Below are positions 30,336 to 63,805 of a stretch of DNA of 64,000 nt, piece after piece. Source of the DNA: a virus; the IMG/VR virus record IMGVR_UViG_3300023178_001963; one strand, 5' to 3'. Under the pieces are notes generated by a model. That model was not told the DNA's origin, did no database searches, and saw only the letters and a program-made list of their open reading frames with translations. The translations under genes were made by a program, and so were the position numbers. How positions within the stretch are numbered: the stretch's first letter is position 1; every line of letters starts with the position of its first letter.

Positions 30336-31213
30336 ACACTTCTGAAGAAATGTATTTAGACTTACTTCACACAGTGATGGAAAAAGGCGAAGAACGTGAC
30401 AAGGAGCGAACTGGCGTAGGCACAAAATCTATTTTTATGTCAATGCTAAACTTTGATTTTAAAGATGGATTCCCACTTTTAACTACAAAGAAAGTCCCAT
30501 TCAAATCTGTACTAAGTGAACTGCTTTGGTTCATTGAAGGATCCACAGATGAACGCAGATTAGCAGAAATACATTATGGTACAACATCTGGTAACATAAT
30601 GGACAAAAAAACTATCTGGACAGCCAATGCTGATAATCAAGGTAAAGAATTAGGTTACATCAATACAGCATTAACAAAGCATCTAGGACCTGTGTACGGA
30701 AAGCAATGGAGACGCTGGGAGAAGCCAGAGGGCGGGCATATAGATCAACTAGCTAACTTGATTGAGAATATAAAAACCAATCCACAATCACGTAGACATA
30801 TTCTTTCTGCTTGGAATGTAGCAGATATCGACAAGATGGCATTACCACCATGTCACACATTCTCACAATTTTATGTTAATAATAATGGAGAACTAAGCTG
30901 CAATCTGTATCAACGTAGTGCTGATTTATTCTTGGGCGTGCCGTTCAACATTGCGTCATACTCACTATTAACACATATGATTGCACAAGTATGTGAACTT
31001 AAAGTGGGAGAGTTTTTTCACACTATCGGTGATGCTCACATTTATATGAACCATATAGATGCGGTTAAGGAGCAATTAGAAAGAGAACCAAATGATTATC
31101 CAAATTTGGTAATCAATCCAGATATTAAATCAATTGACGATTTCAAAATGAATGATTTTGAAATTAAAGACTATAACAGTCATGGGACTATCAAAGCGGA
31201 TATGGCAGTATGA
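30332..31213 (+). CDS. thyA: thymidylate synthase
   Basis: RTGVGT, FPLLTTKK, ELLWF, LGPVYGKQWR, MALPPCH, YQRSADLFLGVPFNIASY, GDAHIY. Confidence 0.97.
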   Translation: MNTSEEMYLDLLHTVMEKGEERDKERTGVGTKSIFMSMLNFDFKDGFPLLTTKKVPFKSVLSELLWFIEGSTDERRLAEIHYGTTSGNIMDKKTIWTANADNQGKELGYINTALTKHLGPVYGKQWRRWEKPEGGHIDQLANLIENIKTNPQSRRHILSAWNVADIDKMALPPCHTFSQFYVNNNGELSCNLYQRSADLFLGVPFNIASYSLLTHMIAQVCELKVGEFFHTIGDAHIYMNHIDAVKEQLEREPNDYPNLVINPDIKSIDDFKMNDFEIKDYNSHGTIKADMAV

Positions 31214-31839
31214 GTTTTGACTTCTTAACATTAACAGCATATGGTGATCAAATAGAATTAAAGCCAACTATAGATGGAAAGAAGTTTGTTCGCTGGTCAG
31301 AAGACAACTTCAAGTATGTTAGATATAATCCAAGACACGATGTTAATCGTTGGGGGTTAAGTATAACTAGTTTAGATGGTGGGCTTAGTGGTGTACCAGA
31401 TTTAGATAGCCTACATCAATATAATATAGAAAACAATACTAGTCATGCTGAAACAGACTTTGATGTAGTCACACCAGTTTACGAACAATATAAAGAACTT
31501 CAACAAATTATTGAACCATGGAAAAATTACATGTTTCGTTCACATGTAATCAGATTAGGCCCGGGAGGTTTTTTCCCACCACACCGTGACACATATCATT
31601 ATGATATCAATACTTTTAGATTAATTGTTCCATTACACAATTGTAACCCACCAAATGTTTTCTTCAACTTAGAAGAAAACGCAATGCATTGGGAACAGGG
31701 ACGTATGTACTTTCTTAATACAACTAAAGTACATACCCTTTTTAATGCTAGTTTTGATAATAGTTACTGGATTGTTTTTAACATAAAATGTAATAAAGAT
31801 TCGGTAAACGCTGTTTTGAGAAACTTAAAACAAAATTAG
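31210..31839 (+). CDS. 2OG-Fe(II) oxygenase (AspH-like)
   Basis: FFPPHRD (HxD), HTLFN distal His, jelly-roll pattern. Confidence 0.7.
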   Translation: MSFDFLTLTAYGDQIELKPTIDGKKFVRWSEDNFKYVRYNPRHDVNRWGLSITSLDGGLSGVPDLDSLHQYNIENNTSHAETDFDVVTPVYEQYKELQQIIEPWKNYMFRSHVIRLGPGGFFPPHRDTYHYDINTFRLIVPLHNCNPPNVFFNLEENAMHWEQGRMYFLNTTKVHTLFNASFDNSYWIVFNIKCNKDSVNAVLRNLKQN

Positions 31840-32948
31840 ACTTTTCTCTTTGGTATTTTACTATCGGCTGAACTTACACAACTTTTGCTAATACAAGGCA
31901 TCGGTTTATCAAATAGTTTAAATCCACTCTCAATATATCCTAATGGTTGATCTGCACAACTATATGAACGTTTGATGGATCCGTCAGGTTCACGTATAAT
32001 AATTCCTTGATATCCACTGTTACAACTCCATCCTTCAAAATTATTAAAGTTAAAAGCATTGAAACGTTCTGCTTGGTCCATATACCACTTCTTACCTTTT
32101 GAATCAGTGAACTCTACCTGCATATGCCATGGAACGCTTTTATCATTTTCACCAATAGCGTACTGTGGCATTTCAAATGTAGGCTTCGGTCTACCCTCCC
32201 ATTTTCTTTTTACTTCAGTATAAGCCATTTGAGGCATACCATTCCACAAACGCTTCATTTGTTCTTCTGTATATCCTTCAACAACTTTTGACGCTGTTGG
32301 GTCACTTTGGGGTTTGAGGGTAACGTTGATTCCTTGCTCGTGGAAGAAAAGAGCATTTTCCCAATCTTTTTCAAACCACTCGGGAACCATGACCATGTTG
32401 ATTGTAATCTGTACATCGTGTTCCTGACACAGGATTAATTTGTCTGCAAATTCCTGCATCTTCTCCTTCGTGTCTAAATGCTCTGTATGTAAACTTGCTG
32501 TAATACTTGCTCTATGAAAAGGTTTCGCTCTTTCCACATAATCCTCAAACCACTTAAGTGGGCGAGAACAATTACTAGTCATATGTATACTAGTATAGTT
32601 AGTATTAGGAACATCATCAGCCAAATGGCCCAGTATGTCCAAGTATCCAGGGTGGAAGGTAGGCTCGCCCCCACTAAGACTAAAGTGAAAACTATTAAAT
32701 CCATTATCACGTGCTTGCCTCTTTATTTCATCTACTGTTGCTAGACACAACTCTGTTGGTCTGTGATCTTTTCTGTCACTTCTGGCATAGGGCCAGCAAT
32801 AACTACATCTATAGTTACAGAAGCGTCCAAGTAACCATGACACTGTAAATAAGTCACGGTAAAGTAATGTACGCTGTCCTACTTGTACTAAATCATCAAA
32901 AGGTATTTTAGTAAAGTCATACTCACTCCATTTTAAGTCTTCACTCAT
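31836..32948 (-). CDS. radical SAM protein
   Basis: CNYRCSYC, SGGEPT, C-terminal Cys cluster; start likely MSEDLK at 32948. Confidence 0.88.
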   Translation of the reverse strand: MSEDLKWSEYDFTKIPFDDLVQVGQRTLLYRDLFTVSWLLGRFCNYRCSYCWPYARSDRKDHRPTELCLATVDEIKRQARDNGFNSFHFSLSGGEPTFHPGYLDILGHLADDVPNTNYTSIHMTSNCSRPLKWFEDYVERAKPFHRASITASLHTEHLDTKEKMQEFADKLILCQEHDVQITINMVMVPEWFEKDWENALFFHEQGINVTLKPQSDPTASKVVEGYTEEQMKRLWNGMPQMAYTEVKRKWEGRPKPTFEMPQYAIGENDKSVPWHMQVEFTDSKGKKWYMDQAERFNAFNFNNFEGWSCNSGYQGIIIREPDGSIKRSYSCADQPLGYIESGFKLFDKPMPCISKSCVSSADSKIPKRKV

Positions 32949-33571
32949 AGTCGTCCAAATCCCCATTGTCTTTCTTCACACCACCAACAATAACCACACT
33001 GTTCTACTGTAGGATCAATGTCTGGTAGATGTTTCATCGTGTCATCCATCCATTCACAACTACTAGTTAACTCAAACAAATCTAATAAGTTATGTTTTCT
33101 ATATAAATTAGCAATACCACGTTTATCTATATTAGCAAATGGTAATCTAACTTTACCATCAAACAGAATTTCAGGGCGATTACCGTCTGGTGTTCTATCA
33201 TCTACTGGACCATCTTTACTAATGAAACTCTCAACGACATCTGCCGGCGGATTAGCTGTAGCACCATTATAAAAACAACTTATAGTATTACTATCTAATA
33301 ATGAACTAAGATCCTCGTTCAAGTTTTCTAATGTCTGATGTGGTATATGTCTTAATCTATGGTCATAGTTTGTAAATCCAGTAGCATTGCTACAGTACTC
33401 TATGATAGAAGGAGTTCTTTTTGCATTACGTTCAAATTTATCTGCTGCTGCTACTGTACATATGTACATTTTATTTTTATGTACAGACATCAGTAAGTAC
33501 AATAGAAGTGCGCTATCTGCACCTCCACTGACTGATACTCCTATAGGTTCATTCGGTGTTTCTATAATCAT
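32945..33571 (-). CDS. QueC-like PP-loop ATP pyrophosphatase
   Basis: VSVSGGADSALL, PFANIDK, SSC...CGYCWWCEER. Confidence 0.72.
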   Translation of the reverse strand: MIIETPNEPIGVSVSGGADSALLLYLLMSVHKNKMYICTVAAADKFERNAKRTPSIIEYCSNATGFTNYDHRLRHIPHQTLENLNEDLSSLLDSNTISCFYNGATANPPADVVESFISKDGPVDDRTPDGNRPEILFDGKVRLPFANIDKRGIANLYRKHNLLDLFELTSSCEWMDDTMKHLPDIDPTVEQCGYCWWCEERQWGFGRL

Positions 33572-34521
33572 AATTCTTCTTTTATAAATGTATCACGCTT
33601 CATTTGCTTACATACTTGCATACAGCGAGGAACAGGATTATCCCCATCCCAACTATCAATAATGCCCTTCCACACTTTACTGTTTATGGCATCTTCAATA
33701 CTTGCGTTTTCTAAATTTATCGTATTTTTATAATCGTTTTCTTCTAGTAGTGTTTCAAATTCATCTTTGTGAATACCTGTTACATTATATTCCATCATTT
33801 TACTATTTAAATGACAACAAGGTATTACGTTACCAGTATGATTAATAAAGATACGCTTTTGATTTCCATATTTACAACTCACATATGGTATCTCTACTGC
33901 GTTATCTATGTCTTCAGTCTTTGCCGCTTTCACACCTTTAGTGTCTTTACGATGACTAATAATAGTTTTAAAATTTTTAAACCCTTCGTCAGATGCTTTT
34001 TGTTTTGCTTCTTCCATCTGATGTTCGTTATGTTCAAAAACAATGAACTGCCAATTACTTCGACCACCTGCTGCGTTAAATGCTTTATAGTTTTGTTCTA
34101 CTTTTTTAAAGCTACTGCCTTCTCTATAAACTTCACTTAGTTCATCACTTCCATCGATTCCCCAGGTAACTGCGTGGCTCTCTGGTAGTAGTCCTGCTAA
34201 GTCTGTCCACCATTGTGGGTGACGCAAACTGCCATTAGTAGCAATGTTAATATGCGCACCCCAATCAGCAAAGTGTCTTATGATATCAAAGAATTGTGGG
34301 TGCGATGTGGGTTCGTCTACACTGCCACAAAAATTTATAATCTTAATACTTGGAAACATATCTTTTTGAAATCGTTCACGTATTGTATCAATTGTAATAT
34401 ATTCTTTGTTTAATATTTTATCAGCATGTTTAGATATAACTCTAAAACATCCTTTACATTGGATGTTACAAAAACTTGTTAGTTCTATATCTAACCATTC
34501 TATTGTTTTCATATCCCACAT
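33568..34521 (-). CDS. radical SAM/SPASM-twitch protein
   Basis: CNIQCKGC, ATNG, GNVIPCC, C-terminal CMQVC. Confidence 0.88.
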   Translation of the reverse strand: MWDMKTIEWLDIELTSFCNIQCKGCFRVISKHADKILNKEYITIDTIRERFQKDMFPSIKIINFCGSVDEPTSHPQFFDIIRHFADWGAHINIATNGSLRHPQWWTDLAGLLPESHAVTWGIDGSDELSEVYREGSSFKKVEQNYKAFNAAGGRSNWQFIVFEHNEHQMEEAKQKASDEGFKNFKTIISHRKDTKGVKAAKTEDIDNAVEIPYVSCKYGNQKRIFINHTGNVIPCCHLNSKMMEYNVTGIHKDEFETLLEENDYKNTINLENASIEDAINSKVWKGIIDSWDGDNPVPRCMQVCKQMKRDTFIKEEL

Positions 34522-34533: not shown

Positions 34534-35163
34534 TTATATTACATATGTTTTTATAGATTTACTATGAGAAACTATATTTCTAAAAACAGTACCATCATCA
34601 TTTAGTACAGTATTCCACGTATGTTCTTTATTAGGAAAACCTATACCCAATTGATAGTGTGGTTTTGAAAAAAATTCAATATCTGTTTCGCCTGTAACTT
34701 CTGTTACTAATTCAGCAATATCTTTTGAATCAAAACATTGATTGTATCCGGTACGGTATCCTAAAGCATTCGCTGCAAATGCTACAGCGCCACTGCTAAT
34801 TCCCATAGCAGTTCTGGCATTTAATAACCATGGATCAAAAAATCCTTGAGTGTTTTTCCAATCTCCAATGCCTTCTTTTTTAAGTTCAAACCAAGTAAAC
34901 ACCACAGGTGCATCAACTTGTGCGTTTCTACCTACAGTTTGTTGATTATCTGGATCTTCTGCCAATTCATAAAATTTACGATTTAAATCTCTATCGGTTG
35001 ATACTACTAATCTGTAAAATTCATCATTAGATTTAGTAGGCATGTTTATTGCTATATCAATTAGCGCATGTACATGTTCTTCTGGAACCGATTGTGTATG
35101 ATCCCAGTTACGTTGGCAATGTTCAGCGTTTTTGCTTGCTTCAATTAATTCATTTACATTCAT
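34534..35163 (-). CDS. nitroreductase-family protein
   Basis: HCQRNW, MPTKSN, AMGISSG...ANALGYRTG, LGIGFP. Confidence 0.65.
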   Translation of the reverse strand: MNVNELIEASKNAEHCQRNWDHTQSVPEEHVHALIDIAINMPTKSNDEFYRLVVSTDRDLNRKFYELAEDPDNQQTVGRNAQVDAPVVFTWFELKKEGIGDWKNTQGFFDPWLLNARTAMGISSGAVAFAANALGYRTGYNQCFDSKDIAELVTEVTGETDIEFFSKPHYQLGIGFPNKEHTWNTVLNDDGTVFRNIVSHSKSIKTYVI

Positions 35164-36374
35164 TTTGTGTTCTCAAATATACTCATGTCTTCAATGTGTT
35201 GAGGTAAAATACTCATTAGTTCATCACGTTCAATACTCTTAGGTGTACACATACCGCATCCACAATGCTTTCCAGGACCTAGAGGGCATGTTATAATAGG
35301 CATTGTTTTATTTTCTATATTAGTACGGAACTCTTCTATAATCTTATCGCATTCTGAAATAGATCCAATTGGACCACGTGTACCATCAAAACGTGCTTGA
35401 CAAGTTTGGTGATGCCAGATAGTATCTGTTTGTTGTTCAATATGTAAAAAGAACCAGTTGACACTACATTGCCAGTTTCGAAACTTAGCAAACTCTAAAA
35501 ATGTGCTTTTACTCCAGCAACCATCTGTACCGCAAGTTTCCATTGTGCGACTACCACAACACGGTCTACCCAACTGTCTAGCAAATTTCTTTTCTTCTGT
35601 TTTTTCGACTTGTACAGCACCAGCTTCGTGTCCTACTTCTGCTTCTGCTTCTTCCGTAGTTTTATCTTTATTAAGTGCTGCATTTTTATCTGCCCAATAA
35701 TCTTTCATCCACTGTAATTGTTCTTCAGTATATTTATGGGCATAACTATTTTTACTATCTTCGTGTTCACCAATCATACGCGGAACGTAACCGATACCAT
35801 CACGTTCGAAACGCATACATAATTCTTTACATTCATCCCAATATTCAGCATGGAACATAACATTAATTTTGATTGGGAATCCTTTTTCAGTTAGATAGTA
35901 AATGTTATTAACAACTTGTTTTTTTAAACTTGAATGTGCTTCCGCATGGTAACTGATAGTCATAAAGCCATAGTTTTCGCAAACACTGTCTGCCATCTTT
36001 TTACCGAAAGCACCGTTACTAGTAATAGTCAAGTTTAGTCTATAATCATCTTTATAATTTTCACGCCATGTTTGCTGTAGCCATTCGCCAAACTCTAAAA
36101 AGTTTGGATTGTTTGTAGGTTCACCACCAGTAAAATTGATGTTTATACCTTTATTTTTTTTATAAGGCATCATTAAATTTGCGTAATCAAAAATAAATCT
36201 GCCAGTCTTTTTTAAAGTTTCTAAATTAGCATGTGGTGAAAAGTTATCGTGTCTATGTGGTGGACAATATGTACAGTCATAGTTACAACGTCTACCCACA
36301 TCCCACGTTACAGTAAGATTGTCACCATCCAGCAAATTGATTGCTGTAAAATCAGTGTATTCTAAATCTTTCAT
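35160..36374 (-). CDS. radical SAM protein
   Basis: CNYDCTYC, FTGGEPT, TSNG, multiple C-terminal Cys (CGCGMC). Confidence 0.88.
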   Translation of the reverse strand: MKDLEYTDFTAINLLDGDNLTVTWDVGRRCNYDCTYCPPHRHDNFSPHANLETLKKTGRFIFDYANLMMPYKKNKGININFTGGEPTNNPNFLEFGEWLQQTWRENYKDDYRLNLTITSNGAFGKKMADSVCENYGFMTISYHAEAHSSLKKQVVNNIYYLTEKGFPIKINVMFHAEYWDECKELCMRFERDGIGYVPRMIGEHEDSKNSYAHKYTEEQLQWMKDYWADKNAALNKDKTTEEAEAEVGHEAGAVQVEKTEEKKFARQLGRPCCGSRTMETCGTDGCWSKSTFLEFAKFRNWQCSVNWFFLHIEQQTDTIWHHQTCQARFDGTRGPIGSISECDKIIEEFRTNIENKTMPIITCPLGPGKHCGCGMCTPKSIERDELMSILPQHIEDMSIFENTK

Positions 36375-37822
36375 TTTATTGGAGTCTCCAAAAATTCTAT
36401 TATGTCCGGATGAATGTAATCATTATAACATTGATTTCTACTCATGTCAAACACTTTTATTTCTTTTAGCATATTCAATCTATGTTGTTCTGTTATTTCT
36501 AAATCTAAGTTTGCTTCTAAGAAAGAAATACCACTTGTCATATTAGTATGATAATAATCATTATTATGACTATAATTTTCTTTGATATTTTTAAATTTTT
36601 CTATCAAGTCTAACTTTATATGTTTAGGTAAAAACTTAACATTTATGTATTTTTCTTCGGGCCAAAGCAAGTCTAAAAAGAATACAGCAAATTCATTTGA
36701 TTTTCTACCATACTCTTTATGTAAACTATAATGAAACTCTACTAAATCCTCTAAGTAATGTGCATTTAGCACACTAAGAACGACATTGAAACTAAAGTTT
36801 TTTATGAATCCATATGGTGTTCTTTTATAATTAATATCTTTGACAGATTCTAAAATATTTCTTAAACTCTTTTCTAATACTGAAAATTTCATAGGGTATC
36901 TTATATATTCATAATTTTTCCCATATCCATCGATACTACAATTTAATACAAGACCGTCAAACTTTTTTAACTTTTCTATATTTTCATTTGAAAACTTAGT
37001 AGCATTAGTATGGAACTCTAACATAATATTTTTTGAGGCTCCAGTTTCAATAGCCGTATCTAAAAACTGTATAAAAGGTTTACTCATAAGAGTTTCACCA
37101 CCAGTTGCTTTTATATGTTTTAAATTATGTATATTGTCTAATATATTTTCCCACTGTTTTCCGTCTTTCCAGTTGTATACTTGGTATTCGCCACCTATGT
37201 ATAATTCTTGATCCGTTCTCTTTTGTTCTTCTAACGATAATTCAGTAAGAGAATTTTCTTTTATGATAGTATCTCTGCGTTTCTGCCAATCAAATCCTTG
37301 AATACCACTTGTGTCCACATTGTTATCGGCAAAATATTGATAGTCTAATCTAAGTTTATTACTTAAACCTGGTTGACACATACGACATCTCAAATTACAG
37401 TTTTCACCAAACGCAAAATCAATAGAACTTAATTTTGGATTTTCTATAAGATCATCTAATTCGTCTTCGTCTGTTATTTTTAATAAGCCAGGAGGCATGC
37501 TGTCTAATCTATAACTATAAACGTCATCTCCATTTCCGTTTTCTTCCATCTTCCAACACGTAGCACATGAAGGATGTCTTCTGTTAGTTAACGCATACTC
37601 TCTTATTTCATTCATCGTCTTGCCATGAAATATTTCTTCTGCGGTAATAGTATCAGGATTAGATATCAGTTCTATGTGGTTATTTAACGGATCAGGCATA
37701 TCAGGACGTATCGAATTACAGCACGGCGCAGCATTCGTAATGCCATACTTGTAATGCCAAGTCTTTAACGCCAGTAATGAAAATGGAAACCAGCAAAAAG
37801 TATTATCTTTAGTTGGTTTCAC
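36371..37822 (-). CDS. radical SAM protein with N-terminal twitch-like Cys module
   Basis: FCWFPF..PCC..CATCW; CNLRCRMC; TGGETL; YEYIRYP. Confidence 0.88.
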   Translation of the reverse strand: MKPTKDNTFCWFPFSLLALKTWHYKYGITNAAPCCNSIRPDMPDPLNNHIELISNPDTITAEEIFHGKTMNEIREYALTNRRHPSCATCWKMEENGNGDDVYSYRLDSMPPGLLKITDEDELDDLIENPKLSSIDFAFGENCNLRCRMCQPGLSNKLRLDYQYFADNNVDTSGIQGFDWQKRRDTIIKENSLTELSLEEQKRTDQELYIGGEYQVYNWKDGKQWENILDNIHNLKHIKATGGETLMSKPFIQFLDTAIETGASKNIMLEFHTNATKFSNENIEKLKKFDGLVLNCSIDGYGKNYEYIRYPMKFSVLEKSLRNILESVKDINYKRTPYGFIKNFSFNVVLSVLNAHYLEDLVEFHYSLHKEYGRKSNEFAVFFLDLLWPEEKYINVKFLPKHIKLDLIEKFKNIKENYSHNNDYYHTNMTSGISFLEANLDLEITEQHRLNMLKEIKVFDMSRNQCYNDYIHPDIIEFLETPIK

Positions 37823-38687
37823 CTAACTTTTCCTTTGCTGTTGCTTTTGCCCATTCACGTTCGGCACACCAATAACAGCCTCTATTAGGATCATCTGATA
37901 ACTGATCGCACGTGGGTAGTGGTGTTTCGCCATGTACATATTTGGTGTGATCCACAAAATCATCTGGGAATATAACTTTATCACCTTCACAACTACGAGT
38001 AGTGTTAAGTAAATCTTCCCAACCACGTCTATAATATTGTGCCATAATAAAGTCTTTGGTGATAAGTTTCCAAGGATGAACCAGTACTGGATCTCTGAAG
38101 GCTGTATCATCTTTTTCAATATATTGTGGACATACGCTGGTAGTTGATAATCTTTCTTCATTCCATACTCTATCCCATGGACCTTTGGTATGATTTACCA
38201 CATCAGGTGCTGGATTATTTGTAATAAAATTATATACAGCATCTAACTTATATGTGTGAACAGCAAAACTATTGAAACTCTGTGTACATTGCCTATCACC
38301 GGTTGTCCCTAGTTTCTCTATAATACCAATAGCGCCTTCTTCTAACTCTGGTGGAATAAAATTCTGAATACGTTCCATACAAACATTTGGGAACATTTCA
38401 CGTATTTTATTATATACTTCTACACTAATAGGTGCTGCCCAAGGTCTATTATTCCAAACTCTTACGTTTGTTAAAAAATAGATTGCTGTGTTGTTTCCAT
38501 GTTTTTCAATTAACTCTGCTAGTATCGCTGTGCCAACAGCACTATCTGCGCCGCCACTAACATTTACACCAACACGTTTCCAAGTCGGATCATACGGATA
38601 TAATGCCTCGTCTACTTGATGTAATACATCAGTACTGATATTGTGCATTTCATAACTTTTATTACTTAAACTAACATCAAATGCCAT
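37809..38687 (-). CDS. QueC-like PP-loop ATP pyrophosphatase
   Basis: VNVSGGADSA, TRSCEG, CD...GCYWCAERE. Confidence 0.7.
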   Translation of the reverse strand: MAFDVSLSNKSYEMHNISTDVLHQVDEALYPYDPTWKRVGVNVSGGADSAVGTAILAELIEKHGNNTAIYFLTNVRVWNNRPWAAPISVEVYNKIREMFPNVCMERIQNFIPPELEEGAIGIIEKLGTTGDRQCTQSFNSFAVHTYKLDAVYNFITNNPAPDVVNHTKGPWDRVWNEERLSTTSVCPQYIEKDDTAFRDPVLVHPWKLITKDFIMAQYYRRGWEDLLNTTRSCEGDKVIFPDDFVDHTKYVHGETPLPTCDQLSDDPNRGCYWCAEREWAKATAKEKLGETN

Positions 38688-40077
38688 CGAATATTCCTTT
38701 CATATCTTTAAATACTTCGTAAAAATTTAAGTTTCTTTGTTTGTCACACAGCATTAAATATTCTTTTAATTCGGGAAGGCGAATACTCCAATCCTCACTC
38801 TCCATAAATTTGAGCATCCCTTCTAATCTATCAATACCATAACTTGCGCTACGCCATTCATCATAATTTACTTTACCCTTGTGCCAGCCAGGAATACCTT
38901 TTTCCCAGTTAGCCTCCCACCATGGATAAAACTCTTCGTATTTTTTTCTACATTTTTCTTTAAATTCAGTAGGTAGAACTTTAACATTTAAATGTGGTGG
39001 ATGGTATACAAAGTGATAATTAATACCACCAGCTCCAAACGGCCACATATTAATCTTTTTAAATCCTTGTTCTAATTTCCAACGAATAAAGTCTGGCAAA
39101 TAGTAGATATTAAGTGCTTGTACAGCACACGCAACTGTAATCTCAACATTATCAGTTGTTTCATTATCTAGTATATGAAAAACTTCTTCAGTACGCTTCC
39201 ACTCACTAGGATAACGAATATAACTATTCATTTCACCAATACTATCTACACTATAATGGAAACGAACTAGTTTAAATTCTTTCCACAAGTCAAATAAGTC
39301 ATCACGCCACTCAACTCCGTTTGAATTATAACGTAGTTCTAAGTTTTTAGCATGACCCTGACGTATGCATTCTTCTAATATCTCATAGTGTTCTTCAATA
39401 ATAAGACTTTCGCCACCAGCAAAATAAATCTGCTGCATATTCGGTATCTGTGAATAGAATTGTTCCCAAAATACTGGATTTTGTTTATGCCAGTTGTAAG
39501 AACTACCATTTGTGCTGCCCTTATCAGCCCATTGCATTGTTTCCTTCAATGAATTATTCTGAACAAGTGGGAATATCTTTGAATGGTCTTTAATCCAACC
39601 TGAACTATCGTGTGGCGAACACATAACACATGCTAACTGACATTTTGTACCAAATCGCAAATCAATATACGTCAACTCTGGTGGGACTTCACCATCTTCA
39701 GTTGTATTATCTAGTAATCTGTCAACATCTACACGTTGACTCCAGTAATTAGTCTCCCACATACGTTTTGAATTGTGTCCAGCAGCCTCTTCTTTAAAAC
39801 ATTTTACACAACTCGGTGGGACTTCACTGTTCATCATCTGTCTGCGTACATTCTTCATGTACTTACTATTCCAAGCAGTTTGAAAATCAGTTACATTCAG
39901 ATTGTTGGGTCTACCTTCATCATCTTTTAGAATACCTACCATACCACCGTGTTCTTTATCATTAGTTGGTCCAACACTGGATGCATTAGCAGTACAACAT
40001 ACACGCATTGAACCATCTGGTCTTGTACTCAGATGTACCCACGGTAAAATACAGAATGTATCACTTTTCTTTGTCAT
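38677..40077 (-). CDS. radical SAM protein with N-terminal twitch-like module
   Basis: FCILPW..RVCC..CVKC; CQLACVMC; FAGGES; YIRYPS. Confidence 0.9.
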   Translation of the reverse strand: MTKKSDTFCILPWVHLSTRPDGSMRVCCTANASSVGPTNDKEHGGMVGILKDDEGRPNNLNVTDFQTAWNSKYMKNVRRQMMNSEVPPSCVKCFKEEAAGHNSKRMWETNYWSQRVDVDRLLDNTTEDGEVPPELTYIDLRFGTKCQLACVMCSPHDSSGWIKDHSKIFPLVQNNSLKETMQWADKGSTNGSSYNWHKQNPVFWEQFYSQIPNMQQIYFAGGESLIIEEHYEILEECIRQGHAKNLELRYNSNGVEWRDDLFDLWKEFKLVRFHYSVDSIGEMNSYIRYPSEWKRTEEVFHILDNETTDNVEITVACAVQALNIYYLPDFIRWKLEQGFKKINMWPFGAGGINYHFVYHPPHLNVKVLPTEFKEKCRKKYEEFYPWWEANWEKGIPGWHKGKVNYDEWRSASYGIDRLEGMLKFMESEDWSIRLPELKEYLMLCDKQRNLNFYEVFKDMKGIFDGI

Positions 40078-53804: not shown

Positions 53805-53918
53805 CTATTTGTAAATGAAAGGATCTCTCTTACGAAGTTCTTCCATTTTCTTCTTTAGCTGCTTTTTTCTTTTATACTCGACAAAAGGCCAAGTTATGAT
53901 TTCCCAAAGTGTTTTCAT
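53805..53918 (-). CDS. 37-aa basic peptide (MKTLWEIITWPFVEYKRKKQLKKKMEELRKRDPFIYK)
   Basis: Read manually; ATG overlaps the upstream TAA; fills the gap between the SGNH gene and the carbamoyltransferase. Confidence 0.6.
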   Translation of the reverse strand: MKTLWEIITWPFVEYKRKKQLKKKMEELRKRDPFIYK

Positions 53919-54649
53919 TATCCGTTTCCTGATCTTGTTCTTTCTATATCATCAAATAATATTTTTGCCCAACCATTATGTGCTTCTTTGTTTGGATGCA
54001 TATACCTTTCGTCGCCCTCTTTATCATAGTATAACTCATTATCATACATATATGTAAAGAATGTTTGTTGTTCATATAATCTAGTCATATCTATTTGCGC
54101 CATAACATTTGTCATTTCTGTTTGCTCACAAATTTCTGAAAAGATTGTAGGATCAATCAAGTTAGGTGTAAGATTTAGTGAATTAAAAATTACATATTCT
54201 AAATCAGCATTCTTAAAAAAGTTTTGAAGTGTTAAAACATTTATAAGATATTGATGGAAGTCATATGTTGGACTCCAAAAATGCTTCATGTATAAAGAAT
54301 TTAACAATGCCAATTCTTTATTAGTTTCTTCTTCGAGTCTAATGTTACCATGATATTCCGGTGACGGTATATTATGAACTAGTAGATTTTTATCTTCTAT
54401 AAAATGCTCTCTTCTGCTAGGAGCAGTCATACCTATAGCACAAAAAGGCTTCTTACCTTCTTGTAGAAAATCACTCACAGTTTTAATTGTTGTTCTTACA
54501 ATATATGTATTAGAAACGCCTCTGTCTGCTTCTGTGACAGTTTCATCTCTATCAAACCCTAACATCTCTGCTAGTTCATAAGGCCATGCAGTTTCTTTAT
54601 CTGCTAGTCCAGTTCCATATGTAAAGCTACATCCATTTGCGTATAACAT
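53918..54649 (-). CDS. SGNH/GDSL-like protein
   Basis: YANGCSFTYG, GVSN, MHPNKEAH. Confidence 0.65.
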   Translation of the reverse strand: MLYANGCSFTYGTGLADKETAWPYELAEMLGFDRDETVTEADRGVSNTYIVRTTIKTVSDFLQEGKKPFCAIGMTAPSRREHFIEDKNLLVHNIPSPEYHGNIRLEEETNKELALLNSLYMKHFWSPTYDFHQYLINVLTLQNFFKNADLEYVIFNSLNLTPNLIDPTIFSEICEQTEMTNVMAQIDMTRLYEQQTFFTYMYDNELYYDKEGDERYMHPNKEAHNGWAKILFDDIERTRSGNG

Positions 54650-56778: not shown

Positions 56779-56796
56779 CACAGAGAGGACTTAAAC

Positions 56797-57537
56797 ATGA
56801 TTAATGCTCGTTCATTTGCTGATGAAACTTTAAAACTAAAACCATCAGTTTTCTACGATAATCCTGTTACTAAAACTGAGTTACTTGCGCTTGCTATCGT
56901 TGCTCAAAAGATTAACGGTGAGTATATCAAACGTGGCGGCCATTCGGACTTCATAGAAGATGAAGACGGAAACAGTCAATATGTATTAGTCAAGCAAAGT
57001 AACCGCTTTGTTATGGAAACCATCCAACAGTTAGACGGCGATGCTCTTTCTACTGATGTTATGATAGAAGCTGAAGAAATGATGAAGAATCTAGAACTTG
57101 ACTACATGTTCAAAGTTTTAGGAGATCAATTGAATGACTTTGAAACAAGCATTCAGCAGTTTCTTTCCGATGATGAAGAACTTTCTCCTCGCCATCATAT
57201 TGGTGTTGTTGCTTACATCCCAGCATATGTTGAGCGTGAAGAAACACAGAAGCGTTTGGCAGAACGTTCAGTTGGTTCTGAGCATATCGGTTCTAAAGGT
57301 GATACTGTGTCTACTGAAATTGAAATTATTTCTAAGCGTCCAGCAACAGCATGGGCAGGATATAATATTAATGCTATTACGACTGATGGTAATCGTGTTT
57401 CATTCTTTACTACAAAAGATTATATAGCAAATAAAAAAGGTTCTTTTAAAATTACAGGAAAAGTAAAAGATTTGGGACGTGTTTGGAACAATGAGACAAT
57501 CAAAGAGACTCGACTGAACTACGTTAAGATTGTCTAA
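56797..57537 (+). CDS. hypothetical protein with possible C-terminal OB-fold
   Basis: SEHIGSKGD...DGNRVSFF...ITGKVK...ETRLNYVK. Confidence 0.55.
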   Translation: MINARSFADETLKLKPSVFYDNPVTKTELLALAIVAQKINGEYIKRGGHSDFIEDEDGNSQYVLVKQSNRFVMETIQQLDGDALSTDVMIEAEEMMKNLELDYMFKVLGDQLNDFETSIQQFLSDDEELSPRHHIGVVAYIPAYVEREETQKRLAERSVGSEHIGSKGDTVSTEIEIISKRPATAWAGYNINAITTDGNRVSFFTTKDYIANKKGSFKITGKVKDLGRVWNNETIKETRLNYVKIV

Positions 57538-58519
57538 GAAAGTTATTATACATGTGTTCTCCTACTTTTTTATGAAATATAGGGCTAGGATGGCTGATAA
57601 ATTTCTTATAAAAGTTTTGTTGAAAATTTTCTGGACTGTGAACGTGTTCATTAAAGATTAAATCACTATCTAAAATATCAAGGGATTTACTTATATCAGC
57701 TGGCTGTAAATCCCTTGCAAAACCATATGTATGTGTAGTTATTTTTGGTAAATCTAAAAACCATGGTTCTTCAAAATAATATTTTATGTTATATTCTTTA
57801 CAGATATCTAATATACTATTCTTATAAAAATCGTATCTCAATATTTCATCATAAAAAAACTTTTCTATTTGTTTAAGAGTATAACCGTGTTCCATTTCTT
57901 TGAACCTCTCTACACCCATATTTTTGTTTCTGTTTTTTAAATCATCTAATATAGTCAACATTAAGGGCCTGTAAAAAGTATTACCTTCAAATGTTCTTTT
58001 CTGTTCTGCTCTACCTTCAAAAAAACCAAGCATTATAATATGGCTAGGAGGATGTTCTACAAACTTTACCCAATTCAAAAAAATTCTATAGGCTGTGTTT
58101 ATACCAGTACCACTAAGTCCATAGTTGATAATTTTTTGATCTGTGAAATTTTGTAGAATACTGGTCCATCTTCGACTCTCTGGGACTCCTATCCCTTCAG
58201 TATAGCTACAACCAAAACACCAGATTTCATTTTTAGTATTTTTATCAGTATAGTTGTGTTTGCTTCTAAAATCGTAATTGTTATATTTGTACGTCCAATT
58301 ACAGAATTCTTCTATAGTATAATCATCTATACCAATGGTAAAAAGTTTACTTAATAGTTCTGGTTGTGATTTACTATATTTTTTTACTATTTCGACGGTT
58401 CTATCTTCAGCACAATTGTCATTGCCAAACTTTCCATGGTCAGTAAATTCTTCTACTAACTTACTTTTTATTTCTCTACCGTAAGATGGATAAATTCCAC
58501 GCCCATATAATTCTATCAT
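57524..58519 (-). CDS. SGNH/GDSL-like protein
   Basis: YKYNNYDFR, WCFGCSYTEGIG, NYGLSGTG, ARDL..HPS. Confidence 0.6.
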   Translation of the reverse strand: MIELYGRGIYPSYGREIKSKLVEEFTDHGKFGNDNCAEDRTVEIVKKYSKSQPELLSKLFTIGIDDYTIEEFCNWTYKYNNYDFRSKHNYTDKNTKNEIWCFGCSYTEGIGVPESRRWTSILQNFTDQKIINYGLSGTGINTAYRIFLNWVKFVEHPPSHIIMLGFFEGRAEQKRTFEGNTFYRPLMLTILDDLKNRNKNMGVERFKEMEHGYTLKQIEKFFYDEILRYDFYKNSILDICKEYNIKYYFEEPWFLDLPKITTHTYGFARDLQPADISKSLDILDSDLIFNEHVHSPENFQQNFYKKFISHPSPIFHKKVGEHMYNNFLRQS

Positions 58520-58523: not shown

Positions 58524-59168
58524 TTATTTATAATGACTATACAATGCCTGTGCTAATTCAAACTCTTCCAATTCATCAATATCGATAGCTTCGAATTGAT
58601 TCATATTAAAATATTCGAACTCCATTGGTATCATGTATTTTGCTTCTCTTAAATCTTTCATCTTACAGACTGTACCTGCATATGGAAACATATATACTGG
58701 ATCTATTCCTTGACTGTATGGATGCCAAAGACCGAATGTAAAATTAATAGGTCTTTTATTAACATCCAAATAATAATGTGAACTATTGTGTACAGCAATA
58801 TGGTTCTTTCCTGTATTCTTATATACATTATATAATTCATCATATCTTTTAAACAGAGGACAACAAACAAATGTATAAATTACATCTTGGTCATCTTCAA
58901 CTGGTACACCGTTATATATCTGTTCTAATACATATGTAAATCTAGTTACATTGTTACAATATTCAGAATCACGTTGAACATACGTGACATTTTCTGTATT
59001 AGATACTTCTGTATCATCTGTGCTAATATAAACGTGTTCTGCTCCGGCTGCAAACAATTGTTCTAGTTTTACATCTACAAGAGATTTACCATCGTAAAAC
59101 TCCATATGATGTTTACCGGGTAATCTTTCACTACTCTTTTTATAATTAGTTACACCTACAAATCCCAT
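58524..59168 (-). CDS. acylneuraminate/KDO-type cytidylyltransferase (NeuA-like)
   Basis: KKSSERLPGKH, ISTDD, CPL, AIDIDELEEFELA. Confidence 0.75.
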   Translation of the reverse strand: MGFVGVTNYKKSSERLPGKHHMEFYDGKSLVDVKLEQLFAAGAEHVYISTDDTEVSNTENVTYVQRDSEYCNNVTRFTYVLEQIYNGVPVEDDQDVIYTFVCCPLFKRYDELYNVYKNTGKNHIAVHNSSHYYLDVNKRPINFTFGLWHPYSQGIDPVYMFPYAGTVCKMKDLREAKYMIPMEFEYFNMNQFEAIDIDELEEFELAQALYSHYK

Positions 59169-59180: not shown

Positions 59181-60056
59181 TTAAATGAAACATTCTTTCT
59201 TTCCGTAAATGAATGCTTGTTTTATTAAATCTGAATCGTTTGTTACTTTAAATGTTAAATCTGTTGTCATCCTTGGTAATCGTACGGTTACACTTTCACA
59301 TGTATCTGGAAAGTTATCATTACAATATTTTAAAAATTTCACAGCATCAAACTTTGGGTATTCTACATAACCTCTATCATCAGGTTTTTCCCAAGATGAA
59401 TGATAACTGTAAAGATGTAAATGTTTTATTCTTCCTGCTATTCTTTCTATGAAGCCAAGAAGATTTCCTTCATATGATTTTTCTAAATCTTCTAAAGTTG
59501 AAATATACTTGTTTACTTTTAATATGTTAACAGGGATTTCAATTCTACTTTCATCTTTAGGTTTCATTAAGATTATACGCAGAGGCTTATCGATTATTTG
59601 ATGAGATTGGCTTATTGTACTTCCTGGATGAATTGTATTTCTATGAACGTTGCTTAATACAGGAGGCGACTTAACATCTCCTTCTATCAAATCACTACAT
59701 AATACTAGCATACGATAGAATCTTGCGAATAGATTATCAAAGTCTGCTTCATCGTTTTTGTCTATAAGCTGTAAGTCTTTTAAAAAATCTAGACCTTTTA
59801 AAACGCCACTACCATATGGTATACTATGATATTTTTCTGAAAGGTTGCCATCTAACCACAGTTGACTCATGTTATGTTCCCTTGTGTCTATAAAACAATC
59901 TATCAAACTAAATTCTTTTAATACGTCTTTCCAATCTTCGTATGTTGGTTGTGCTATCGTACGCCATGAGTGAGATGGATGAGTCAATAACGCATAGTTT
60001 ACATCATCATCTCTATTATCTAAAAATATCTTTTTAAATAATTCATGTTCATTCAT
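59181..60056 (-). CDS. hypothetical protein
   Basis: 291 aa ORF, IHPG motif. Confidence 0.55.
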   Translation of the reverse strand: MNEHELFKKIFLDNRDDDVNYALLTHPSHSWRTIAQPTYEDWKDVLKEFSLIDCFIDTREHNMSQLWLDGNLSEKYHSIPYGSGVLKGLDFLKDLQLIDKNDEADFDNLFARFYRMLVLCSDLIEGDVKSPPVLSNVHRNTIHPGSTISQSHQIIDKPLRIILMKPKDESRIEIPVNILKVNKYISTLEDLEKSYEGNLLGFIERIAGRIKHLHLYSYHSSWEKPDDRGYVEYPKFDAVKFLKYCNDNFPDTCESVTVRLPRMTTDLTFKVTNDSDLIKQAFIYGKKECFI

Positions 60057-62187
60057 TTATAAATTCAACTCCATCGAACTCTGATACGTTTCCTGTTAGT
60101 TCAAAATACTGTTTATCAAAAGACATATCTTCTCTTTTTAGTTCATGTTCTTCTACTGACCTGTCTTCGTTTTGTGCTACATGCTCAAATTCATACCAGC
60201 ATTTAAAGCTATAGTCGCCGTTGTCATCAACTTCCCACTCTGCTTCGCCTGATAGCATAGTGGCAAGGCTCACACCAAACTCCTGCATATCTAGTTCCGG
60301 ATCCCAAGTCATTTTAAATTTATGTCCACTGAACGCTTGATACATAATCCACATATGTGGTAAGTTTTCATTTGCCAATGTAGCAGCTAAATTATTTTGG
60401 GCGGTATCACCACTAAAAATATTAAAATTTTGATTTGAACGTTGTGGTATGTAATCCTTATATTCTCCGGGATTATTCTGTTCAAATTCTACAAATTTAC
60501 TCATTCCCGGACGACTCTGAGAATTAATTATAGTTCCTTCTGCTTCGTTGATACACATAGACAACCATTGATTCATGTACTTCAATCGTAATGCCCTATG
60601 TAGAATAGTATTCTCATAATTTTCTGTATACCAATTACTCATAAACTTATTATCCCATGGAGTTTCACTCCATTGAATTTTATAGTTTTTCCAGTTCTTG
60701 TTCATATCACTCAGTGGAGCATCACCGCATGTCATGCCCGGCGAGATAACCGTGGCCCAATTTCGTATATTATACAAAACGTGTAAACTATGACACCATT
60801 CAGCAGGTCCTTCAGTTGGGAATCCGACGACCCAGTTAATATGATTTTCTATTCCTGCTATTTTAGCATCACGTAAGTTGTCTTCTATTTCCCAAACTTT
60901 AATTTTCTTTTTCATATCAAGTAGAACCTTTTCACTTCCACTTTCAACTCCAAAACTTAACAAGCTACAACCACTCGCTTTGATTTTATGAAAGAATTCT
61001 AAATCCATACGTCCATCACATCTAGCATAGCTATTCCATCTGATGTCCATACTACGTTCAATTATCTGATCTACTAAATCTCTAAACGCTTTTATATTAC
61101 CATTTACTAAACTATCAACAAACCAAAATCGTCTTGTACCATAAGTATCAATCTGATGCTGCATTTCATCTATAACATTTGTACTTTCACGGGATCTAAA
61201 CTTCCAAAAGTGTGTCTCGGAACAGAAACTACATAGAGCAATACAACCTCTACTAGTTTCAATACTAACACCGCCTTGGTGAGAATATAGAGACAAATCA
61301 TAATCTGAATAATCTGGAAAAGGCATTTGGTTTAAATCAAGTCTGCTATTTGCTCCTCCGAAAACATGAGGACCATCTTCTTTTGAATATTCACTATAGT
61401 TTTCCAAGTAACCCAATAACATTTCTTCGCCTTCACCTATAATTCTAACATCATAGTTTTCTATTATATCTGCCAAAGGATATGGATGTCTTTTATGAGG
61501 ATTGGGTTCTTCATAATCATCTAACCAGTCTTGGAACGCTTCTGGGCCACCTATTAATATTGTGATATCGGGCGCAAGACGCTTTAATTCTTTTATCATA
61601 TACGCACTAGGAACAGTATTTGTAGCATACAAACTGAAGCCAACAAATCTAGCACCATCGTTAATAATACGCTGTACTGTTTCGTCTAATAGTGGAGTTA
61701 ACGCAGGTTTTATTTTAGTATCATAGTTTGGAACAATCCAATGATCCCAGTATATTGCGTCCCATGGATCATAATCTAACTTATCTTTAAGATAATGATA
61801 AGATTCAATATTAGTATCATATACTGTTACTTCATAACCATTTTCTCTCAGCAATGATGATATACGTGCTGCGTTATATGGAGGAAATATAATACCCCAA
61901 CTAGGACAAACAACAAAAGATATTTTATCATTTTTTCTAGGAGGATTTAAACTAGACCAATACTCATATCCAGTATCCTCTCTTTGACTCCAATATGTAT
62001 AATTTTTAGAAACAGAAGAAACAGGATCTGTTCCTAAATGACTGTTGGCATGACGCATTTCTTCTTCATGCTGAATAACAGTTAGAACAATTTGATCTCT
62101 GTCTTCGCTTTTAAAATCATACTTTGGTTTTGACTTTTTTTGAGAGGTCAGCGAGTTTTGTTCTTTGCTTTCGTTTCTCTGCGTCAT
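60049..62187 (-). CDS. cobalamin-binding radical SAM enzyme
   Basis: B12-domain VGFS..ILIGGP..GEGE; ETSRGCIALCSFC; FVDS; FGVESGS; VGFPTE. Confidence 0.85.
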   Translation of the reverse strand: MTQRNESKEQNSLTSQKKSKPKYDFKSEDRDQIVLTVIQHEEEMRHANSHLGTDPVSSVSKNYTYWSQREDTGYEYWSSLNPPRKNDKISFVVCPSWGIIFPPYNAARISSLLRENGYEVTVYDTNIESYHYLKDKLDYDPWDAIYWDHWIVPNYDTKIKPALTPLLDETVQRIINDGARFVGFSLYATNTVPSAYMIKELKRLAPDITILIGGPEAFQDWLDDYEEPNPHKRHPYPLADIIENYDVRIIGEGEEMLLGYLENYSEYSKEDGPHVFGGANSRLDLNQMPFPDYSDYDLSLYSHQGGVSIETSRGCIALCSFCSETHFWKFRSRESTNVIDEMQHQIDTYGTRRFWFVDSLVNGNIKAFRDLVDQIIERSMDIRWNSYARCDGRMDLEFFHKIKASGCSLLSFGVESGSEKVLLDMKKKIKVWEIEDNLRDAKIAGIENHINWVVGFPTEGPAEWCHSLHVLYNIRNWATVISPGMTCGDAPLSDMNKNWKNYKIQWSETPWDNKFMSNWYTENYENTILHRALRLKYMNQWLSMCINEAEGTIINSQSRPGMSKFVEFEQNNPGEYKDYIPQRSNQNFNIFSGDTAQNNLAATLANENLPHMWIMYQAFSGHKFKMTWDPELDMQEFGVSLATMLSGEAEWEVDDNGDYSFKCWYEFEHVAQNEDRSVEEHELKREDMSFDKQYFELTGNVSEFDGVEFINE

Positions 62188-63805
62188 TCATTCTTCCTAT
62201 TGCTGCCGCTAAATCTGGTAGACTTTCTTTCCAGTCTTCTTTTCTTATTTTATCAAGTCTAATTGTGTCTCTTTTAAATTTTTCCCACATATTAGGGTCT
62301 TGTTCTTTTGCCCACATTTGTCCTAACGCTTGCTTTAAAGCAGTTTCAGTAATACCTGCCCATATCATATCATGTTGTGTACAAGTGTCGATTGGCCATC
62401 TTTTCCAGATATGAGTTATAAATCTATTATATAGATCCTCTACTTCTTTTTTAAGATATGTAGGTAAATTTTGTATACAATATTGCTCTGGACCAAATAC
62501 TAAATGTATATGCATTTCATTACTAAGACGCTTAAAGTTTTGTTCTTTTATCCAATACATAAAGTCTGGTACATGAAACACATTCATAATACTAAGAGTT
62601 AAAGTAACTTTAGCTTCTAAATTATCAAGTCTGGGATCAGTATCTAACTCTTTTAGTAATCTTTCAGTCTTACTCCATTTTCCAGGATTTCGTATGTATT
62701 CAAAATGACTATCCATACCATCAAGACTCATCCCTATTACTACTTTTTTGAATTGTGCCCAAAGATCGAAAAAGCTCTTACTACTCGCAGCCATATTACT
62801 ATTATATTCTAACTCTATATTTTTCGATAAACCTTTTTCAACAATCATTTCTAACAATTCTCTATGCTTATGATTGATAGTAGGTTCACCTCCTGTAAAA
62901 TATAATCTTTCTATATACTTTAAGTTTTTTGTAATATCAGTCCATAGTTGTGAACCTTCATACCAACTTTTCATATGAGGTATCTCAACCTGACCTTTAG
63001 AATTTGTTATGATTTCAGCATGTTCTCCGTCTAAATCAATTGTAAATGGTTTATCAGATTTTTTACTGTCTACCATTTCCATATAATCTTTATACCACAA
63101 ATCACTATTTGATGGACCACAAGACCTGCATTTTAAATTACATTTATTACCAAAACGTAGATCCCACCATCTAATAGGAAAATCTTTGTTTTTAATTTTT
63201 CCATCTTTTTTAGTTTTTTCATATGCATTTAGTACTACATCTGGAAAATGTTTATTGGCATATTTTCTTCTTGACATGCCATACGGCACAGCATCTTCTT
63301 CGTCAAAACATAATTTACACGCAGATGGTCTTTTACCTTTCAACATATCACTTCGCAACATCTTCCAAAATTTTGCGTTTCTGTTTCTGCTTATCTTATC
63401 ATTATAATTCAATAACGTACCATCATCTTTTTCAATAAGTCCTACATTAGATGACTCATCCGTGTATATCATTTGACAACAAGCACGAATACTACCATTC
63501 GCATTAGTACCAGCATGGATCCATGGAATAGTACAGAATGAACTTTGGTCTGCTTCTCTTAGTAATTTAGATTCTAATAAATCATTGTAAACCTCACCGA
63601 GTCTATCTTTTACAATATCTATTATATCATCATCTATTATTGGTGATCTAAGTACGCTAAGTAATACATCTTGGTCTTCATCAAATGTTGCTACAATTTC
63701 AAGTACCTCACGTGGACAATCTGGATCTAGAATCATGTCTATACGTTGCTCAGGCGTTCTGTATATGTCTGGATTCAGATCAAATCTACTATCTACATCA
63801 CTCAT
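62117..63805 (-). CDS. radical SAM protein with twitch-like module and N-terminal helical extension
   Basis: FCTIPW..RACC..CKLC; CNLKCRSC; FTGGEPT; FEYIRNP. Confidence 0.9.
   Translation of the reverse strand: MSDVDSRFDLNPDIYRTPEQRIDMILDPDCPREVLEIVATFDEDQDVLLSVLRSPIIDDDIIDIVKDRLGEVYNDLLESKLLREADQSSFCTIPWIHAGTNANGSIRACCQMIYTDESSNVGLIEKDDGTLLNYNDKISRNRNAKFWKMLRSDMLKGKRPSACKLCFDEEDAVPYGMSRRKYANKHFPDVVLNAYEKTKKDGKIKNKDFPIRWWDLRFGNKCNLKCRSCGPSNSDLWYKDYMEMVDSKKSDKPFTIDLDGEHAEIITNSKGQVEIPHMKSWYEGSQLWTDITKNLKYIERLYFTGGEPTINHKHRELLEMIVEKGLSKNIELEYNSNMAASSKSFFDLWAQFKKVVIGMSLDGMDSHFEYIRNPGKWSKTERLLKELDTDPRLDNLEAKVTLTLSIMNVFHVPDFMYWIKEQNFKRLSNEMHIHLVFGPEQYCIQNLPTYLKKEVEDLYNRFITHIWKRWPIDTCTQHDMIWAGITETALKQALGQMWAKEQDPNMWEKFKRDTIRLDKIRKEDWKESLPDLAAAIGRMNDAEKRKQRTKLADLSKKVKTKV

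Follow-up and report, generated by a model that had tools for sequence, protein, structure and literature searches.

A phage gene island with 15 radical-SAM enzymes encodes a candidate glycan build-and-edit pathway

We analyzed a 64,000-nucleotide stretch of DNA (the window; G000:C1 16464-80463) within the 90-kb IMG/VR virus record IMGVR_UViG_3300023178_001963, which has a completeness estimate of 25%. The stretch contains most of a gene island of approximately 39 kb that encodes 15 radical S-adenosylmethionine (radical-SAM) enzymes, R1–R15, and four glycosyltransferases, GT1–GT4, and adjoins genes for the virus particle. A first-pass annotation of the window had drawn the cluster too small, at 31210-63805 (about 32 kb) with 13 radical-SAM enzymes and one glycosyltransferase. 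The island extends approximately 5.9 kb beyond the window end, to G000:C1 86331, and this part adds two radical-SAM genes, three glycosyltransferase genes (a GT1 paralogue and two GT8-like genes), a gene for an unassigned 194-amino acid protein and a 130-amino acid gene at the operon head. Virion structural and fiber-like genes are located beyond the head. The family-B polymerase of the contig is closest to those of Sinorhizobium phage Phosso (48%), Agrobacterium phage Atu_ph07 (46%) and 350-380 kb enterobacterial jumbo phages (41%). Together with the virus record and the conserved synteny described below, this rules out a cellular or chimeric contig, and every frame is open, which rules out pseudogenes. 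Thus, neither of these two objections, both raised in the first-pass annotation, applies.

All 13 radical-SAM reading frames listed in the first-pass annotation exist, are open and carry the CxxxCxxC motif, and 11 of them passed the cut-off of Pfam PF04055. The two below the cut-off are R10, which passes the NCBIfam model NF033640, and R9, a paralogue of R11. Within the island, the motif was found in 15 of the 32 open reading frames of at least 200 amino acids, compared to none of the 36 in the rest of the contig, which excludes chance. Judged from this motif and the PF04055 core, the proteins belong to the radical-SAM superfamily, and they are predicted to cleave SAM reductively in an Fe-S-dependent manner. 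They form four groups of old paralogues (20–35% identity): seven enzymes with an N-terminal twitch domain, three with a C-terminal twitch domain, four of a WxxGxxCNxxCxYC type and one cobalamin-binding enzyme. The auxiliary cysteine sets described earlier were recovered in seven N-terminal and three C-terminal (PCC..CxxxC) cases, whereas the R1/R3 type has a different set and R12 is B12-binding.

Profile-based classification, proposed earlier as a check, confirmed the PF04055 assignments and placed seven enzymes (R4, R5, R6, R7, R8, R10 and R13) in NF033640 (N_Twi_rSAM), with scores of 190–412 bits over nearly the full profile at a whole-protein cut-off of 170 bits. The scores of R1, R2, R3, R9, R11, R12, R14 and R15 were 51 bits or less. 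None of the enzymes reached the NCBIfam cut-offs for viperin, MoaA or SPASM maturases of ribosomally made, post-translationally modified peptides (RiPPs), the best scores being 55.7 of 180 bits for viperin and 40.9 of 284 for MoaA; those of the four WxxGxxCNxxCxYC-type enzymes were likewise sub-threshold. An AlphaFold2 (AF2) model of R6, with a predicted local distance difference test (pLDDT) score of 86, displayed only generic radical-SAM folds as Foldseek matches (template modeling (TM) scores of at most 0.35), headed by anSME, CteB-type, SkfB and SuiB and also including BlsE, so that no substrate can be deduced from the structure. The island is in part a member of NF033640, for which no naming paper was found in the literature searched, and is a member of no characterized pathway; the other eight radical-SAM enzymes, the glycosyltransferase family and the operon are without a family entry.

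GT1 and GT2 gave no family match. Their models display a GT-A fold with an invariant DxD motif, and the best structural match of GT1 was B4GALNT1, with a root-mean-square deviation of 2.6 over 138 amino acids. In this comparison nucleotidyltransferases scored nearly as high as glycosyltransferases, and the enzymes of the viruses PBCV-1 and STIV were among the matches, as part of a generic likeness. Based on the models, GT1 and GT2 are GT-A-fold proteins with a predicted glycosyltransferase activity. The GT3 profile matched glycogenin across roughly 100 residues at the N-terminus (E 7e-7), and GT3 and GT4, in which DxD and HMK are invariant, are GT8-like by sequence similarity. GT2, GT1 and the methyltransferase-like protein MT1 are fused into a single polypeptide in several related loci; A064R of chlorovirus PBCV-1 is also a fusion of two glycosyltransferases and a methyltransferase. 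MT1 contains a helical repeat of about 23 amino acids, the copy number of which differs between relatives, and a role as chain-length ruler or scaffold is possible. Searches against solved structures with GT1, MT1 and the 194-amino acid protein were empty or gave weak matches.

The enzymes reported to be interleaved with these genes were supported to different degrees. The carbamoyltransferase, the cytidylyltransferase, the AspH-type 2-oxoglutarate (2OG) oxygenase and one QueC-like protein passed Pfam, the last of these marginally, whereas the score of the nitroreductase was too low to pass. Motifs and paralogy are the only basis for assigning the second QueC-like gene, the four SGNH-like genes and the two methyltransferase-like genes. 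The carbamoyltransferase scored 153 bits to the NodU model NF041651, which has a cut-off of 1000. The QueC-like genes had no match in NCBIfam, and PHROGs returned no result for the GT1, methyltransferase-like, SGNH-like and QueC-like genes. The island proteins have an acidic isoelectric point throughout, and none is clearly membrane-spanning.

Table 1. Genes of the island. Positions refer to the window unless prefixed by G000:C1.
Feature	Position	Strand	Evidence and remarks
AspH-family 2OG-Fe(II) oxygenase (accessory)	31210..31839	+	PF05118 E 4e-6, above cut-off; family recurs in related loci
R1, core radical-SAM, WxLGRxCNYxCSYC type, C-terminal Cys set	31836..32966	-	PF04055; 72-89% identity in phage loci, 59-68% in 12/251 Bdellovibrionota genomes
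QueC-like PP-loop ATPase 1 (accessory)	32945..33571	-	PF06508 23.2 bits; SGGxDS and Zn-site Cys invariant
R2, radical-SAM, C-terminal twitch, HNEH type	33568..34521	-	PF04055 and PF13186
Nitroreductase-like (accessory)	34534..35163	-	PF00881 E 4e-4, under cut-off
R3, semi-core radical-SAM, R1 paralogue	35160..36374	-	PF04055; orthologue in 27/42 full-flank loci
R4, N-twitch radical-SAM	36371..37822	-	NF033640 234 bits
QueC-like PP-loop ATPase 2 (accessory)	37809..38687	-	Paralogue of the gene at 32945, E 2.5e-6; motifs
R5, core N-twitch radical-SAM	38677..40077	-	NF033640 412 bits; ~60% in Bdellovibrionota
R6, N-twitch radical-SAM	40074..41441	-	NF033640 314 bits; late-type GATAAATA 13 nt upstream
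R7, N-twitch radical-SAM	41482..42756	+	NF033640 210 bits
R8, N-twitch radical-SAM	42725..43834	-	NF033640 190 bits
SGNH-like 1	43831..44547	-	GCSY..H motif only, no Pfam match
R9, semi-core C-twitch radical-SAM	44540..45634	-	R11 paralogue, E 6e-41; 27/42 loci
R10, N-twitch radical-SAM	45672..46997	+	NF033640 229 bits; late-type GATAAATA 13 nt upstream
R11, core C-twitch radical-SAM, HNEH type	46990..48075	-	PF04055; 40/42 loci; 42-47% in Bdellovibrionota
SGNH-like 2	48075..48884	-	Motif only
MT1, core methyltransferase-like, at least 6 helical repeats of variable number	48884..50191	-	38/42 loci; putative, weak fold matches only
MT2, methyltransferase-like	50191..51132	-	MT1 paralogue, E 2e-17
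GT1, core GT-A-fold putative glycosyltransferase, unnamed family, invariant DxD	51125..52225	-	AF2 pLDDT 91; Z 11.9 to B4GALNT1
NodU/TobZ-type carbamoyltransferase (accessory)	52260..53795	-	PF02543 and PF16861; under NodU cut-off
SGNH-like 3 (DUF6071)	53918..54649	-	Late-type GATAAATA 34 nt upstream
SGNH-like 4	57524..58519	-	Motif; TATAAATA 13 nt upstream
NeuA-like cytidylyltransferase (accessory)	58524..59168	-	PF02348 above cut-off
Operon-internal protein, no family match	59181..60056	-	
R12, cobalamin-binding radical-SAM	60049..62187	-	PF02310 and PF04055; no NCBIfam cut-off reached
R13, N-twitch radical-SAM	62117..63805	-	NF033640 332 bits
R14, 3' end in window	63808..64000	-	Whole gene G000:C1 80271-81665; R1-type
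R15, R1-type radical-SAM	G000:C1 81640-82647		Beyond window
GT2, GT1 paralogue	G000:C1 82656-83633		Beyond window
194-amino acid protein	G000:C1 83635-84219		Beyond window
GT3 and GT4, GT8-like pair	G000:C1 84216-85073 and 85070-85939		Beyond window
130-amino acid head gene	G000:C1 85939-86331		Beyond window

A search of IMG/VR with R5 identified at least 294 stretches with a relative, the best 80 of which showed 79–89% identity. The loci of these relatives keep one gene order: fiber-like gene, head gene, GT4, GT3, the unassigned gene, GT2, GT1, MT1, a gene for a 74-amino acid protein, R11, (R9), R5, (R3) and R1. Among 42 loci with full flanks, chosen by the presence of R5, R1 was present in 30 (for R11 and MT1, see Table 1), with 5–13 radical-SAM genes per 21 kb. 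The synteny search that had been proposed for this cluster thus revealed a shared gene order in relatives. The accessory content between the core genes is hypervariable, with 490 radical-SAM proteins falling into 106 clusters at 42% identity, and includes genes for GDP-mannose dehydratase, DegT aminotransferase, UDP-glucose dehydrogenase, TylF, nucleoside diphosphate (NDP)-sugar C-methyltransferase and other O- and C-methyltransferases. A complete relative of 383 kb contains 14 matches to PF04055 and another relative 19. The position of the locus behind fiber-like genes is constant from soil to marine phages. The only isolate matching both GT1 and GT3 is Ralstonia phage RsoM2USA, in which a minimal copy (head gene, GT4, GT3, unassigned gene, GT2, radical-SAM gene, GT1 and methyltransferase gene) immediately follows the tail sheath, tube and fiber-like genes; a second site contains SGNH, radical-SAM and carbamoyltransferase genes. 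No description of the system was found in the literature searched, the coverage of which mostly excludes subscription journals; radical SAM is not mentioned in PMC8504454, PMC12619734 or bioRxiv 10.64898/2026.10.24.761521.

The best homologues in GTDB were mostly from Bdellovibrionota, and five genomes of this group contained 4–25 matches each to NF033640. Orthologues of R1 were identified in about 5% of the sampled Bdellovibrionota genomes (Table 1) and the GT1 family in 15 of the 251; 11 of the 12 genomes with R1 also carry GT1, although these genomes are not independent. The bacterial loci contain orthologues of R1, R5, R11, GT1/GT2 and MT1 and are located among housekeeping genes on long contigs, often next to membrane proteins. 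The most common neighbor family of the cellular homologues was the glycosyltransferase family PF00535 (11 of 139 genes). In contrast, no member of the GT3 (GT8) family was found in five Bdellovibrionota genomes with GT1. In a tree of R1, the phage sequences formed one clade (support 100/99) apart from the bacterial ones, which rules out that the bacterial loci are phage DNA binned by mistake; the outgroup branches of this tree are too long to give the direction of transfer. Thus, this phage is no special case: many aquatic jumbo phages carry the cluster, and Bdellovibrionota chromosomes have part of it. Because the core is present in bacteria and GT3 was not found in the five genomes, the system looks like a shared glycan-editing core combined with a GT8 module so far seen in phages only. 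Several Bdellovibrionota radical-SAM loci (L149, L154, L157, L187 and L188) also carry a pair of genes, for a membrane protein of about 300 amino acids and a protein of about 160 amino acids, unseen in the phage loci.

The first-pass annotation had taken late promoters as favoring a virion target. The contig contains 10 copies of the motif GATAAATA, which is similar to the late promoter of T4, and all of them are 13–40 nt ahead of an ATG. Inside the island, late-type motifs precede four internal genes only, R10, R6 and SGNH-like 3 with GATAAATA and SGNH-like 4 with TATAAATA. The operon head has a perfect TTGACA-17-TATAAT promoter with the -35 box at G000:C1 86386, and a similar sigma70-type promoter was found at the head of 17 of 21 loci, some of which are nearly identical copies; a late motif was not seen within 110 nt. 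The promoter sequence suggests that the main operon is probably expressed early, which removes this reason for a virion target, although such a target is compatible with it.

The glycosyltransferase folds, the glycosyltransferase–methyltransferase fusions, the NDP-sugar accessory genes and the glycosyltransferase-rich cellular neighborhoods agree with the earlier view of a biosynthetic cluster inside a virus, the chemistry of which is very probably centered on sugars. Of the explanations considered, a cytoplasmic pathway with a decorated glycan on virion fiber proteins as its product is the most likely, at a probability of roughly 45%. In such a pathway, the GT8/glycogenin-like pair and two small partner proteins would prime a sugar on a phage protein, the GT-A pair would lengthen the chain, and MT1 may cap or O-methylate it. 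Three conserved radical-SAM enzymes might oxidize, epimerize, dehydrate or decarboxylate sugars or NDP-sugars, by analogy with the twitch enzymes BtrN, NeoN and BlsE. The exchangeable paralogues, together with enzymes for acyl, carbamoyl, amide, hydroxyl and methyl groups, would diversify the structure, similarly to O-antigen loci. Synthesis of the enzymes would start early, driven by the host-type promoter, and their action would come later, during particle assembly. BtrN, NeoN and BlsE, from aminoglycoside and nucleoside clusters, have a similar auxiliary cysteine domain and similar companion enzymes, but the twitch is N-terminal in seven of the island enzymes and the identity is about 20%.

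A virion target is favored by the glycosyltransferases being encoded beside structural genes in a fixed order, both in the IMG/VR loci and in RsoM2USA, and the failure to find GT3 in the five bacterial genomes with GT1 fits a phage-specific acceptor. The solubility of the enzymes, the A064R-like fusions and a variability of the O-antigen kind point in the same direction. Several observations weigh against it, among them the probable early expression. The core also works in bacteria, which have no virion, a separate dCMP-hydroxymethylase-like gene in RsoM2USA could supply a DNA acceptor for its glycosyltransferases, and the generic fold matches of R6 include peptide maturases. Further, the head gene is weakly connected to DUF4376, a tail-fiber chaperone domain (PMC10579305): Atlas gave 0.89 and hhalign an E-value of 0.001-0.007 on the same motif, at a probability of 5-19%, and none of 145 family members matched Pfam PF14301. 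A predicted complex of three copies each of the fiber-like and operon-head proteins gave no support. A match of the head gene to Vam3 is probably a helical chance match.

The enzymes may instead be directed at the host, by glycosylating host proteins or altering cytoplasmic envelope-sugar precursors early in infection, with a changed surface of the infected cell (for superinfection exclusion or predator evasion) or a disabled defence as the outcome. This is in line with the conserved sigma70-type head promoter, with the same core among housekeeping genes of Bdellovibrionota and with GT8 folds including protein-modifying enzymes. However, neither a flippase nor a membrane transferase nor a signal-bearing protein was recognized in the phage island, and its position behind fiber genes is constant; we consider a host target unlikely, but worth keeping in view. 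A free small molecule made in the infected cell, resembling an aminoglycoside or a nucleoside or serving as a cofactor, would explain the overlap with antibiotic sugar clusters (carbamoyltransferase, amidinotransferase-like, DegT and B12 radical-SAM genes), yet a displayed structure agrees better with hypervariable accessories around a fixed glycosyltransferase core and with the tight linkage to structural genes, and such a free product is highly improbable. Nearly as improbable is RiPP-like maturation or cross-linking, in which the radical-SAM enzymes would modify a peptide, or virion proteins directly. The candidate peptide is the 74-amino acid protein, a highly conserved product encoded between MT1 and R11 in 33 of the 42 loci (L001:1091-1315 and 32 others), and the top matches of R6 include peptide maturases. 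These matches are generic, no maturase model reached its cut-off, and no protease or exporter was recognized in the island. No copy of the 74-amino acid gene was detected on this contig or in the other MT2-carrying loci examined (L017-L019 and L030), and its protein has no Atlas family, so that we rejected it as a carrier or precursor.

The first-pass annotation had also considered modified DNA, and a further explanation is that the glycosyltransferases add sugars to a modified base of DNA or tRNA, which the radical-SAM enzymes then sculpt. Phage GT-A enzymes glycosylate 5-hydroxymethylcytosine (bioRxiv 10.1101/2023.12.21.572611), a modified thymidine is edited by a radical-SAM enzyme (PMC8989533), and GT-A, carbamoyltransferase and radical-SAM genes also occur in phage DNA hypermodification clusters (5mYOX/TET or ThyA-type with a glycosyltransferase, or 5-hydroxymethyluracil thymidine). 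The early promoter would fit as well, and RsoM2USA_10 has L143D and N177D, which mark a dCMP hydroxymethylase, as judged from the diagnostic ThyA residues in PMC13326640. The ThyA adjacent to the island, however, is canonical (L143, D169 and N177 kept) and thus without N177D and the accompanying L143D/E or D169N of T-even/RB69-type cytosine hypermodification, no second copy was found in G000 (approximately 25% complete), G002 or G003, and the complete 383-kb relative (G001), with its many radical-SAM matches, has no ThyA-family or Tet_JBP match. The Tet_JBP model PF12851 had no match in five records, in a search without a positive control. The clusters mentioned above differ from the island also in that neither this contig nor the complete relative showed a hydroxymethylase or TET enzyme, that the island lies by structural genes and that restriction-site avoidance persists, with CGCG at 0.10, TGCA at 0.51, AGCT at 0.54 and GATC at 0.60 of expected on the contig. 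The island enzymes are all acidic, although the phage polymerase and RNase H are acidic as well. Thus, glyco-hypermodification of DNA by known routes is disfavored, and we regard a nucleic acid target as improbable. A likely cytosine-modification locus, predicted from the sequence, is present in RsoM2USA (L202:618-3998; RsoM2USA_5, _6, _8 and _10), where the L143D/N177D ThyA homologue is located beside dNMP-kinase-like, amidinotransferase-like and deaminase-like genes, annotated as hypothetical only.

Several other features were observed on the contig. An insert of plus-strand genes, unrelated to the island, occupies 54751-57537; it has sigma70-type promoters and encodes, at 55053-56027, a polysaccharide-lyase-like protein (PF14099) with a lipoprotein-like N-terminus. 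A 37-amino acid microprotein ending in DPFIYK is encoded just upstream of the carbamoyltransferase (53805-53918, minus strand), with a similar reading frame in L091. A separate cassette at 9656-17416 contains folE, queE, QueD-like, APRT, metK and glycosyltransferase-like (12407) genes and is possibly a deazaguanine pathway without QueC; it is headed by an unassigned 518-amino acid protein (39–82% identity in relatives), for which solved-structure searches were empty or weak. The QueC-like genes of the island are disfavored as the missing part of this cassette, since the complete relative has folE and queE but no match to their family, and since bacterial copies adjoin radical-SAM genes. A MoxR-type AAA ATPase and a VWA-domain partner (25141-27690) are kept in relatives. 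GAATC/GATTC occurs on the whole contig at 0.61 of expected and several 6-mer palindromes are absent; word avoidance may point to host restriction or methylation systems. HscB-like, IscA-type and ErpA genes follow one another upstream of the window (L172:6318-7484) and represent phage-borne Fe-S delivery.

These carriers and MetK, also encoded by the phage, are consistent with a supply of cofactors to the island. Among the relatives, Fe-S carriers recur in two and MetK in two, and neither was found in RsoM2USA. Radical-SAM enzymes are costly, requiring SAM, Fe-S clusters and here also cobalamin, yet 5–19 of them are kept and several phages add MetK or Fe-S carriers; retention at this cost implies that the product must matter for fitness.

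The Bdellovibrionota loci share R1, R5, R11, GT1/GT2 and MT1 with the island, but differ in that GT3 was not found in the five genomes tested and in the separate R1 clade of the phages. We propose, tentatively, that a widespread clade of aquatic jumbo phages shares a radical-chemistry glycan pathway with predatory Bdellovibrionota and adds GT8 priming for its fibers, with more than 100 exchangeable radical-SAM lineages generating a variable, O-antigen-like coat; the enzyme family behind this coat would be an entirely uncharacterized one. Soluble GT-A enzymes are likewise used in the virion glycosylation of chlorovirus PBCV-1 and mycobacteriophages, whereas the virion target of the island is a prediction from its genes; to our knowledge, no known virion glycosylation system includes radical-SAM tailoring or 5–19 such paralogues. 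Glycans of mycobacteriophage capsids and tails are cited in PMC12619734. The island provides a first functional context for NF033640 and for the GT-A family that has no name yet, and is a rich source of untried radical chemistry. Since RsoM2USA, a cultured phage, has a minimal copy, the question is directly testable, and, if the proposal is true, virion glycosylation would no longer be confined to simple sugars but would include variable glycans with heavy tailoring.

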